From Microthyrium microscopicum (Eukaryota): DNA of 64,000 nt. How positions within the stretch are numbered: position 1 is the first letter of the stretch; each line of letters starts with the position of its first letter. The stretch is from NCBI GenBank assembly GCA_010405405.1, contig MU004241.1, positions 682,001 through 746,000 of the forward strand, in the 5' to 3' direction. The notes beneath the pieces are model-generated. The model was not told the DNA's origin and ran no database searches. It saw only the letters and a program-made list of their open reading frames with translations. Shown here in pieces: positions 28,891 to 31,176 of the stretch. The position numbers were made by a program, and so were the translations under genes.

Positions 28891-29010
28891 TAATATAATA
28901 ATATAATCTTTGGCTCTGCCTACTATTTTTTTGTTGTAACATTCCTTTCATCCTCTCTCCAAACTCGTCCTCCTATCCATCTCTCCATCTCCCCATAATC
29001 CCAATCCAAG
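28891..29010 (+). promoter_or_regulatory. TATA-like core promoter followed by a CT-rich leader
   Basis: TAATATATAATAATATAAT at 28891, then a pyrimidine tract, typical of fungal Pol II 5' ends. Confidence 0.55.
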
Positions 29011-29374
29011 GTACCATATTTGGCCTACTTTCGCGCCCAACGAGTCTATCCCATCCCTCTGCATACCTCAGCTCCCTCGACTGTACCCTCGCCACCTCCC
29101 TTGCCATACGCCTATTCCAGCGCTCTTGCGACGCCCACTATCTGTACTGGTACATCCCACTCAAAGGCTTCTTCGACTCATCAATCAGTCAACGGCATCT
29201 TGCGCCCCTGTTCCTCGCGAGACTATAAAGCCTTGCCATATCCTTCTGTATGGGCAACTCACTTCCCAACACCACAATAGCTTCTCCACGAGCCAGTCTC
29301 GATTGTACGTTTTTCGCATTACAGACCTGTTTCAGAACGACCTCTAACATGAACAAGATCCATCCACATCCACA

Positions 29375-29464
29375 ATGATTGTCAGAGAATCAGAAAGCAT
29401 CAATATGGGTCGCGGAGCCTATGATACAACAGGCACACCCAAACCGCCTCCACCGCCAAAATAA
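29375..29464 (+). CDS. Candidate micropeptide MIVRESESINMGRGAYDTTGTPKPPPPPK (29 aa; 19 aa from the second ATG at 29405)
   Basis: Two in-frame ATGs with A at -3, directly after a candidate 5' UTR intron (29305-29357). Followed by a 3' UTR intron (29584-29695). No longer credible ORF in the unit. Confidence 0.6.
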   Translation: MIVRESESINMGRGAYDTTGTPKPPPPPK

Positions 29465-31176
29465 ATGTAGTCATTGCATCGTCGACCGTTGGGAAGCATT
29501 CCTCTTTTCTGCTGCAGCACTGTCGATTTGCGCGCTTCGTCGATAGCCTCCAAAGTTAACCGCGGGCTGCTCTGTCGGTACTGGTACGTCTCCCCTGCGC
29601 AAGCCTCTGATCGTTATTCGCTATCTGCGAAAGAATGACATACGATATCTTGCATCTCTACATCGAGTCATCATAATGCTGACTGTTTAATCCAGGCCTC
29701 GCACGATAACGTATATGCAGTAGCTGCGCCTCGTTCCTCATCTTCAAGCTCGATTCTTTACACCCTATCATCAACTCGCCTTTCGTCCCGCGCTTCCCGT
29801 AATTTCTACACACATCCATCGGTCTCCTTCCAACATCTTTTACCCATACTTTGCCTTCGAGCCTTTCTTCGACTCACACAATGTTGCCACTAGGATCCCG
29901 GCAGCGCACCAGATGGCTGCCTATTTTCGACGATTAGACTTTATTTGCTGTTCGCTCTAATACCCCTTTCGCATCTGTTTCAGTATACCTGTACAAGTAC
30001 ATCAGCACTTTACGATTTGCCAGGGTCACCCCTTTTTCGCGGATTCATTGGATCACATCCTGGACTGTCACCGGTCTTATCCGACTAGGTTTCTTTTCTC
30101 ATTACGGCGTTACATCAGCATAGACACGGACTGCTCATGCATGGAATTATCAAAAAATTGGGACGGGTCTTGTTTTTTGAGCTTTTACGCTTCAGCCAGC
30201 AATTGGTATTTTGTCTTGCTTCGTACACTATTTGTAACTCTACCCACGTATTTGTGGTACTATAGACTCTGTTTCTCGAGCTCACGCTCAATCTTGTCGT
30301 TGGTTGCTTTGGCATGCTTGGGAGTCATTGTACTGCGAAGCATTTGGCGCTAGGAATATGCTGTTTTTGGCTTTTTTATGCAATGTTCAACTTTTAGAGC
30401 TCGGGCTGACCTTGATGGTCTGCTTTTGCTCTACGGATTTTGTTGAGCGTTGAATCGATTAAACCAAGGGACTGTAATACTCTACGCCGGAGCGTAATTA
30501 TACCCAAGTGGCGTTCATTTTCCCGGCCTGTACAAGATACCACAACTTACATGTAATGAATCAATCAAAGTTATTGGAGAATTTGAAAACTTGCTTAATT
30601 CGAATCCAATGTTTCTCGTCATATCAAACATTTTTCATGTAGTACTTCTATTGGCTTTCAATGGTTGCTACTCATCCAAGTCTCTGCCTAGTACAAATAA
30701 TCGATCGCGAAGATAAGCTTGTGGTCATCAGCTCGTTAATGGCAATAACTTGTAGTAGAAGATGGGACGTGATATAAGCGCGGATGATGGGCAACTATAA
30801 GCGACCTACGAGCGCAGTTTCCTATTTAAGCCATAGGGAAGTAGAACCGGCGTTTAAAGGGTTTGGCTTGGCAAGAGCTTCAACGTTCAATTTACAACTT
30901 GCTGCCCCACGACCACCAACGCTCCCACCCACCACCACGACCTTGACCTCCTTACTGTCTATCAATCAAAACCTCCCGTATCAACTCTTCCATTTGTCCA
31001 ATCTGATCTCCTCCCAACGACTCTGTTCTGCGTTCTTTATTCCCTCCCGTCTCGCGTCCGCTGACCAGCTATTCCCCCGCTCTCCAATCCGATCCCACTC
31101 TTACCGCCCACCCCTCGTCGTGTCTTACCCTCTTTACCACACATCCCAATAATCACACAAACACCTATCCGTCACC

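Follow-up and report, generated by a model that had tools for sequence, protein, structure and literature searches.

A 64,000-nucleotide (nt) stretch of the genome of Microthyrium microscopicum (GenBank assembly GCA_010405405.1, contig MU004241.1, positions 682,001 to 746,000 of the forward strand; hereafter the window, numbered from its first letter) carries a gene whose conserved open reading frame (ORF) spans just 29 codons, upstream of the gene for the Arp2/3 subunit ARPC5. The gene is a genuine twice-spliced transcript, and comparison of its homologues at the codon level indicates that purifying selection acts on the peptide itself, across many lineages. The explanation favoured here, with a little better than even confidence, is that of an independent RNA polymerase II gene, the mRNA of which (~1.5 kb, twice spliced and built in the manner of targets of nonsense-mediated decay (NMD)) encodes a micropeptide of ~30 residues acting in trans as a short-linear-motif ligand. 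A previous inspection of the letters (the sequence-only reading) had proposed a conserved spliced microprotein gene at this position, and that proposal is strongly supported by the transcript, by both of its junctions, by nearly all of the metagenome loci (83 of 84) and protein clusters (99 of 100) retrieved, and by a bias towards synonymous change.

RNA contigs over positions 22000-34000 were obtained from a single public run of one study (X1), the kind of which is off record and which was judged to be RNA by intron skipping. Seven joints were identified in these contigs, with ends GT..AG, or CT..AC for minus-strand genes; besides those of the micropeptide gene, they remove three ARPC5 introns and two minus-strand introns. 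X1 behaves as RNA because the ARPC5 and minus-strand introns are spliced out too, ARPC5 yielding an ORF of 186 amino acids (aa). The micropeptide transcript runs on the plus strand from 28926 to 30580, has a spliced length of 1490 nt with T as its commonest base (459 T) and contains no ORF longer than 70 aa. As is expected of a small-ORF (smORF) gene, it thus possesses its own transcript without a long ORF (spliced contigs 28926-30580).

The layout drawn by the sequence-only reading agrees closely with these contigs. Both of its introns, one in the 5' leader at 29305-29357 and a second one past the stop codon, are spliced out in X1 (joint 29304>29358 and removal of 29584-29695, respectively); for the second, the contig blocks are 29358-29582 and 29695-30580, and GT..AG ends are obtained when the cut is shifted by +1. 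Its TATA cluster at 28891 is present at ~28890-28908, with the RNA contig starting at 28926, its CT-rich leader is reflected in a GC skew of -0.34 across 29000-29499 and its U-rich tail of ~1 kb, resembling a 3' untranslated region (UTR), corresponds to a T-rich exon 3 that reaches 30580. The transcript ends that it proposed lie within ~35 nt of those of the contigs. It also held that splicing of the ORF into a longer coding sequence would speak against a microprotein gene: no longer ORF opens in the spliced RNA, and alternative splice forms, tried as a route to a longer coding sequence, open none either. The micropeptide-bearing contig extends 1.1 kb beyond the stop to sequencing-adapter letters and meets no long ORF, a rare longer isoform being beyond the reach of contigs. 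Contig cover is absent at 27213-28816 and at 30581-30951, between the micropeptide transcript and ARPC5, and the gap is uninformative on separate transcription of the two genes.

Products of 53, 29 or 19 aa are possible in the micropeptide frame, all ending at 29464. The in-frame ATGs at 29375 and 29405 and the stop at 29464 on which the sequence-only reading based a product of 19 or 29 aa are all present; it overlooked the first AUG at 29250 in exon 1, which is in frame across intron 1 and gives the reading of 53 aa. Alignment of homologues points to ATG 29375 as the conserved start (29 aa here), as its Met, within M-I-x-R-E, is at least 90% conserved among 31 aligned members and 46 of the 59 distinct ORFs have A at its position -3. 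The form of 19 aa cannot be the general product because the second Met is replaced by Phe (N-F-G-R-G-A-Y-D-T-T-G) in 20 of 90 single-unit clusters. The extension encoded in exon 1 is not conserved, being 24 aa here and 13 aa in the Alternaria model P0102, with no likeness between them. The 53-aa reading is identical to P0104, filed by NCBI/UniRef as hypothetical protein BT63DRAFT_459658 of the Dothideomycete M. microscopicum, and the idea that the gene had been missed by ORF-length cut-offs therefore does not apply to this genome. The micropeptide is hydrophilic, ~30 aa long, devoid of Cys and of any hydrophobic stretch, with the N-terminus MIVRESESIN and a C-terminal K or R. A single occurrence of the DNA pattern of its core was counted in the 64-kb window, and 100 shuffles gave none. 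As the residue after Gly is Arg or Asn and the fifth position is off consensus, N-myristoylation of the MG start was considered and rejected.

Homologues were sought at both the DNA and the protein level. A degenerate pattern fixing only M-G-R-G-[A/G]-Y-D, a gap and four prolines retrieved 84 stretches from metagenome contigs, 83 of which represent one peptide family; the other (L018) fits the pattern and is an unrelated Gly/Tyr-rich ORF of 213 aa. Several features that the pattern does not request recur among the hits, namely Asn before the Met, T-T-G after Y-D followed by P-K-P, a stop directly after the Pro/Lys/Arg tail, and an in-frame M-I-x-R-[E/D] ~10 codons upstream. The family form is M-I-x-R-E-x4-N-[M/F]-GRGAYDTTG-x-PKPPPP-K/R-stop, of 29-35 aa. 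There are 59 distinct ORF DNAs when that of the window is included, 58 of which span 29-35 codons, and Asn precedes the core unit in 58/59. A search with the window's 34-aa exon-2 piece against 1.84 billion protein representatives (E <= 0.001) gave 100 clusters, with the core present in 99. Among the 31 aligned members, G-R-G-A-Y-D-T-T-G (G36-G44 of P0104) and one Pro are invariant, while the start Met, the Asn, P-K and another Pro are conserved in at least 90%. The MGRG(A/G)Y micro-ORFs that the sequence-only reading mentioned from other filamentous ascomycetes are real, and belong to one family in the DNA and protein searches.

The unit is single in 90 of the 99 clusters and present in two or three copies within one ORF in the other nine (P0002, P0004, P0016, P0018, P0023, P0028, P0033, P0034 and P0068, with GRG[A/S]YDT[T/S]G x2-3), several of which have a (KP)n tail replacing the polyproline. 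Each of the 84 loci was free of a second copy of the unit up to 5 kb away in both directions, as was the whole window, and a polycistronic layout like that of the arthropod gene tarsal-less (tal) was ruled out on this count across 85 sequences. No usable match to the micropeptide was found in the ESM Atlas, and Pfam returned no family for seven of eight members at E values up to 10, the eighth giving one chance match (E 4.8).

Named records of the family comprise BT63DRAFT_459658 (M. microscopicum), AA0113_g5417 (Alternaria arborescens), K490DRAFT_60967 (Saccharata proteae) and Vi05172_g7821 (Venturia inaequalis). They carry no remark on function, family or conservation, and their N-terminal limits, mostly arbitrary, vary to give lengths of 31-80 aa. 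Gene models for the family as a whole are inconsistent, with predicted lengths from 31 to 614 aa for the same unit of 30 aa. The database proteins ending in the micropeptide, up to 614 aa, have N-terminal parts rich in Pro, Ser, Leu and His. In the window, the leader contains a stop-free frame of 135 codons (28940-29347), and these long N-terminal parts look like translated stop-poor, C/T-rich leader.

Selection on the peptide is indicated by codons that the search pattern leaves unforced (N-1, T7, T8, G9, K12 and P13). In the 59 ORF DNAs, entropy at these codons is 0-0.21 bit at positions 1 and 2 and 0.66-1.92 bit at position 3; the near-invariance of the former while the latter varies freely is what points to selection on the amino acids. 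Free third positions of the forced codons are equally variable, the Arg at -7 is encoded by AGA/AGG as well as by CGG/CGA, and downstream of the stop entropy is ~1.8 bit at all three positions. In 11 related loci, the ORF forms the sharpest conservation peak (0.90), compared with 0.34-0.78 for the flanks and 0.79-0.86 for ARPC5 exon 1. Conservation at the amino-acid level with synonymous variation, a second mark of an smORF gene and one that the sequence-only reading had expected of homologues, is therefore present.

This pattern also bears on the reading of the locus as a long non-coding RNA or small nucleolar RNA (snoRNA) host gene with an incidental short ORF. A spliced RNA of 1.5 kb with an intron past the stop and no ORF above 70 aa is what such a gene would look like. 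Its conservation is nevertheless restricted to the ORF and biased to synonymous sites, the position of the stop is conserved, and the unforced codons make it unlikely that the codon pattern was produced by the search. No Rfam family reached its gathering score in the window, the sole sub-threshold match being a minus-strand one to SNORD126 (24.3 bits, where 55 are required); a snoRNA host gene was rejected, as neither intron has an Rfam match. The synonymous pattern and the ORF conservation peak together exclude an incidental ORF on a non-coding RNA, and this reading, all but refuted by the codon pattern, is regarded as scarcely credible.

The exon-intron build appears to be shared among relatives. 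Introns were recognised in 35 representative loci by motif (donor, branch point and AG), with RNA confirmation in the window alone. An upstream intron motif ending 5-45 nt before the start codon was identified in 29/35 representatives, compared with 10% of 780 random control positions in the same loci, and a donor 90-200 nt past the stop in 21/35, compared with 20% of control positions. All seven representatives with a tail of exactly VPKPPPPKPR lack the downstream intron motif, which others with V at that place possess. In the window, the junction 29583|29696 lies 119 nt from the end of the stop at 29464, beyond the ~50 nt past which an intron donor 3' of a stop is taken as a mark of NMD of the exon-junction-complex type. 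Introns in the 3' UTR and long 3' UTRs have been described as NMD triggers in Neurospora (PMC7746235, in a passage citing Zhang and Sachs 2015), because of which the output of peptide is expected to be tied to NMD.

Under the favoured explanation, translation would start at the AUG of M-I-x-R-E and yield a peptide of ~30 aa that may act in trans as a short-linear-motif ligand. Its invariant block, [M/F]-G-R-G-A-Y-D-T-T-G, would be the part that engages a conserved partner, while the basic proline-rich tail (PKPPPPKPR and variants) could form a polyproline-II segment making a second contact of SH3, profilin or WW type. An invariant block of ten residues followed by such a tail is the layout that has been proposed here as expected of a short linear motif with a polyproline-II contact. 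Since the mRNA is constructed like an NMD substrate (a tiny ORF, a spliced intron 119 nt past the stop and a 3' UTR of ~1 kb), peptide output may be coupled to translation and NMD activity.

The neighbourhood of the gene was compared among loci. In 30 of the 84 loci, ARPC5 exon 1 follows the peptide on the same strand at a distance of 1.2-3.6 kb; these are genomic, as ARPC5 introns are present, and include many same-species repeats, amounting to ~20 distinct sequences. Where at least 4 kb of downstream sequence was available, ARPC5 was found in 19 of 31 loci, so that its adjacency, which the sequence-only reading thought might be coincidental, is a conserved though not universal position. The synteny that this reading suggested looking for thus holds for ARPC5 in these 19 loci and fails in the remaining 12, in most of which a Rab5/Ypt51-type GTPase gene stands instead (nine loci, same strand, +1.4 to +3.3 kb). 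Loci with a Rab5-type gene downstream are L001/L009/L021, L004/L026, L013/L043, L034, L055, L065 and L057, and a FIT-family gene follows beyond Rab5 on the other strand in L013, L034, L043 and L057. L057, one of the nine, also has ARPC5 4 kb upstream on the opposite strand. The other three loci are L050, with a divergent Rab5 gene upstream; L027, with neither ARPC5 nor Rab5 in its flanks; and L053, a bacterial-looking contig. The ARPC5 of L037/L058/L079 is 97% identical to that named for Pyrenophora seminiperda. Among 11 ORFs of the window and 69 ORFs of 17 loci, Pfam identified ARPC5, Rab5-type GTPase, FIT and SRP40_C as neighbours. The ARPC5 linkage is therefore old yet not obligatory, with the peptide gene keeping its identity when the neighbour changes, and microsynteny with endocytic genes (ARPC5 or Rab5/Ypt51) hints at a possible role at the actin patch or endosome.

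Features of the micropeptide gene and of its downstream neighbour in the window (positions numbered from the first letter of the window)
Feature	Position	Strand	Basis and remarks
TATA-like A/T-only cluster TAATATAATAATATAAT	28890..28908	+	Sequence; ~20-35 nt 5' of the first RNA-covered base (28926); putative promoter element
Exon 1, C/T-rich 5' leader	28926..29304	+	X1 contig and ATG scan of the spliced RNA; sole ATG at 29250
First AUG of the transcript, in exon 1	29250..29252	+	In frame across intron 1; N-terminal extension of 24 aa giving the 53-aa reading; weak context (T at -3)
Intron 1, 53 nt, GTACGT..CTAAC..AAG	29305..29357	+	X1 joint 29304>29358, GT..AG; ends 17 nt before the conserved start codon
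Exon 2, holding the entire conserved ORF	29358..29583	+	X1 contig
Conserved micropeptide ORF, 29 codons and TAA (29462-29464): MIVRESESINMGRGAYDTTGTPKPPPPPK	29375..29464	+	Sequence, spliced RNA and homologue alignment
Second in-frame ATG, start of the 19-aa form	29405..29407	+	Phe in 20/90 single-unit homologue clusters
Intron 2, 112 nt, GTACGT..CCAG, in the 3' UTR	29584..29695	+	X1 joint; donor 119 nt past the stop codon
Exon 3, T-rich 3' UTR	29696..30580	+	X1 contig, which enters sequencing-adapter letters at 30580
ARPC5 (Arp2/3 p16-Arc), three introns	30952..32420	+	Pfam PF04699; joints 31399>31695, 31824>31913 and 32055>32113

In the window itself, the spliced ARPC5 ORF of 186 aa equals in length the NCBI ARPC5 of M. 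microscopicum, with P0108 being 100% identical across exon 1; a BAR-PH-VASt gene was identified by Pfam upstream of the micropeptide gene, and no Rab5 gene was found in the 64 kb. Other observations concern the surroundings of these genes. Two paralogous small ORFs on the minus strand (33706-33957 and 35349-35693) have signal-peptide-like starts, MRLSQVIFAAAMLASSAIA.. and MRFSQILFTAAMLATSTLA.., respectively, and no Pfam match; for the former, RNA contigs show two short minus-strand introns (33574-33631 and 33694-33745). On the plus strand, an unbroken RNA contig (22032-25000) continues for ~2 kb past the last long ORF (end 22916) of the BAR-PH-VASt region; the surplus is either an exceptionally long 3' UTR or another unannotated transcript fused with it in assembly. 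The interval upstream of the micropeptide gene is uncovered but for two short RNA contigs of low depth (25611-26448, plus strand).

Two copies of the micro-ORF were identified in a bacterial context, where DNA likeness to the fungal loci is limited to the micro-ORF. L053 is a metagenome contig of 7.6 kb (GC 0.30) with long intron-free ORFs for SdhA, SdhB, ZapD, a flavoprotein of the dihydrolipoamide dehydrogenase type (Lpd-type) and PanC. Its micro-ORF (L053:3347-3526) lies between sdhB and zapD, with A/T-adapted codons, a core change of T to I (YDITG) and a lost stop that adds 29 aa; an intrinsic terminator after sdhB was the sole informative result of promoter and terminator scans around both copies. 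L085, a contig of 66 kb filed as a Rickettsiales metagenome-assembled genome, is the sole match in the bacterial/archaeal genome collection scanned for the core. It holds an intact micro-ORF of 31 aa (L085:2263-2358) in a stretch of 0.38-0.44 GC, flanked by a XerC/D-type integrase gene and a minus-strand ORF of 580 codons without an assigned family, with HflX further on, a pilin-like ORF with an N-methylation motif further upstream and no ARPC5. Both copies may reflect either capture of the ORF by fungus-associated bacteria or an artefact of assembly or, for L085, of binning. A bolder version of the trans-acting explanation, considered improbable, casts the peptide as a switch of ancient origin in the machinery of endocytosis and actin patches of fungi, with [M/F]GRGAYDTTG binding one conserved host protein, and has fungus-associated bacteria capturing the bare ORF at least twice (L053 and L085) for mimicry. 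Were this true, the family would reveal a regulatory axis not yet described, together with a point at which to attack it.

A cis-acting regulatory ORF is a serious rival, though an unlikely one. The core would sit in the ribosomal exit tunnel with the proline run at the peptidyl-transferase centre, so that ribosomes stall or slow near the stop, possibly in response to eIF5A or polyamine status, proline runs being dependent on eIF5A. Such a stall would set the fate of its own RNA via NMD or no-go decay, and could, by read-through transcription or promoter occlusion, also control how much is made from ARPC5 or Rab5, whichever lies 1.2-3.6 kb downstream. A peptide of ~30 aa would be wholly within the exit tunnel at termination, almost every member has its proline run in the last 2-9 residues ahead of the stop, and 78 of the 90 single-unit clusters end no more than 22 aa past the core Arg. 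The conserved 3'-UTR intron, the long 3' UTR and a same-strand downstream gene in both synteny classes are also in keeping with it. However, the units repeated two or three times per ORF in 9/99 clusters would be needless for a terminal arrest peptide, and in divergent members (KP)n replaces the proline run. The downstream gene is inconstant and is divergent in L057 and L050, the contig bearing the ORF reaches adapter letters 1.1 kb after the stop with no long ORF on the way, and the two bacterial-context copies retain the ORF alone. Action in trans is favoured over a purely cis-acting nascent peptide because the unit is repeated within single ORFs, because the downstream gene differs by lineage (ARPC5 or Rab5) and because the bare ORF, without fungal flanks, occurs in two bacterial-looking contigs.

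The tandem units have a bearing on another reading, in which the ORF encodes the precursor of a processed and exported signalling peptide of the pheromone, quorum or ribosomally synthesised and post-translationally modified peptide (RiPP) type, the core being freed, for example, by cleavage after the conserved Asn. In the nine multi-unit proteins the units are separated by acidic or hydrophobic spacers, and both the Asn before the unit (58/59 distinct ORFs) and the short leader-plus-core layout are compatible with processing. Yet neither a signal peptide nor a CaaX end nor regular dibasic sites before the units were found, and the core shows no variation, unlike the usual cores of pheromones and RiPPs. 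Nor was a tailoring enzyme, protease or transporter a conserved neighbour among the 11 window ORFs and the 69 ORFs of 17 loci. A precursor of this kind is a poor candidate.

Several points weigh against the trans-acting motif peptide that is preferred here. Translation is inferred from the codon pattern, and a nascent peptide working solely in cis, on the ribosome that makes it, would leave the same pattern. The suggested contact with SH3 domains or profilin is tentative: the fit of the tail to the consensus motifs of their ligands is weak, and any Pro/Lys-rich tail would match these motifs. The NMD-prone build could mean that little peptide is made, and both bacterial-context copies could be assembly artefacts. 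X1 is one run represented by contigs, from which strand, true ends and level of the RNA cannot be read. The multi-unit homologues are predicted proteins without DNA context, and all named members are Dothideomycetes, the wider breadth of the family coming from records without a species name.

There is ample documentation of functional micropeptide genes from animals, plants and budding yeast. For the present family, the peptide strings had no match in the full-text literature (subscription journals and supplements being outside its coverage), and no paper combining a micropeptide with Pezizomycotina was found there; among the top-ranked matches of the broader smORF literature, animals, plants, viruses or methods were the only subjects. 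No paper was thus found on a micropeptide gene conserved across filamentous ascomycetes. The family has ten invariant residues in a product of 30 aa, a conserved exon-intron build and an old ARPC5/Rab5 linkage, is annotated only as "hypothetical protein", and occurs in species among which are major plant pathogens and model fungi. The kind of gene is known and the family new, its members being already in databases as unnamed hypothetical proteins.

Among known systems, conserved-peptide upstream ORFs are one, of which the fungal arginine attenuator peptide is an example; it resembles the micropeptide in its length of 20-30 aa, in its conservation at the amino-acid level in Pezizomycotina and in being short enough for action in the ribosome tunnel. 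It differs in that no main ORF follows on the micropeptide RNA as represented by the X1 contigs, the downstream gene varies by lineage and some homologues repeat the unit. With fungal NMD targets bearing spliced 3'-UTR introns (Zhang and Sachs 2015, as cited in PMC7746235), the gene shares a spliced intron more than 100 nt past the stop and a long 3' UTR; those targets are ordinary protein genes, whereas NMD control of the micropeptide RNA is a prediction. The closest known kind would seem to be the tarsal-less/polished rice/millepattes (tal/pri/mlpt) class of arthropod smORF genes, alike in outline and not homologous. As portrayed in PMC1852585, these encode peptides of 11-32 aa with the motif LDPTGXY from a transcript of ~1.5 kb once classed as non-coding. 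Common to both, on the same source, are a transcript of ~1.5 kb, short peptides defined by a short invariant motif, repetition of the motif in some ORFs, conservation over hundreds of millions of years and a function carried by the peptide and not the RNA, the last of which is proposed for the fungal gene. The two motifs also have in common a hydrophobic-D-x-T-G string, which may be due to chance. In contrast, there is no sequence homology between them, the fungal block [M/F]GRGAYDTTG with its Pro/Lys tail lacking LDPTGXY, and the fungal gene is monocistronic, has its ORF flanked by introns and belongs to a fungal lineage.

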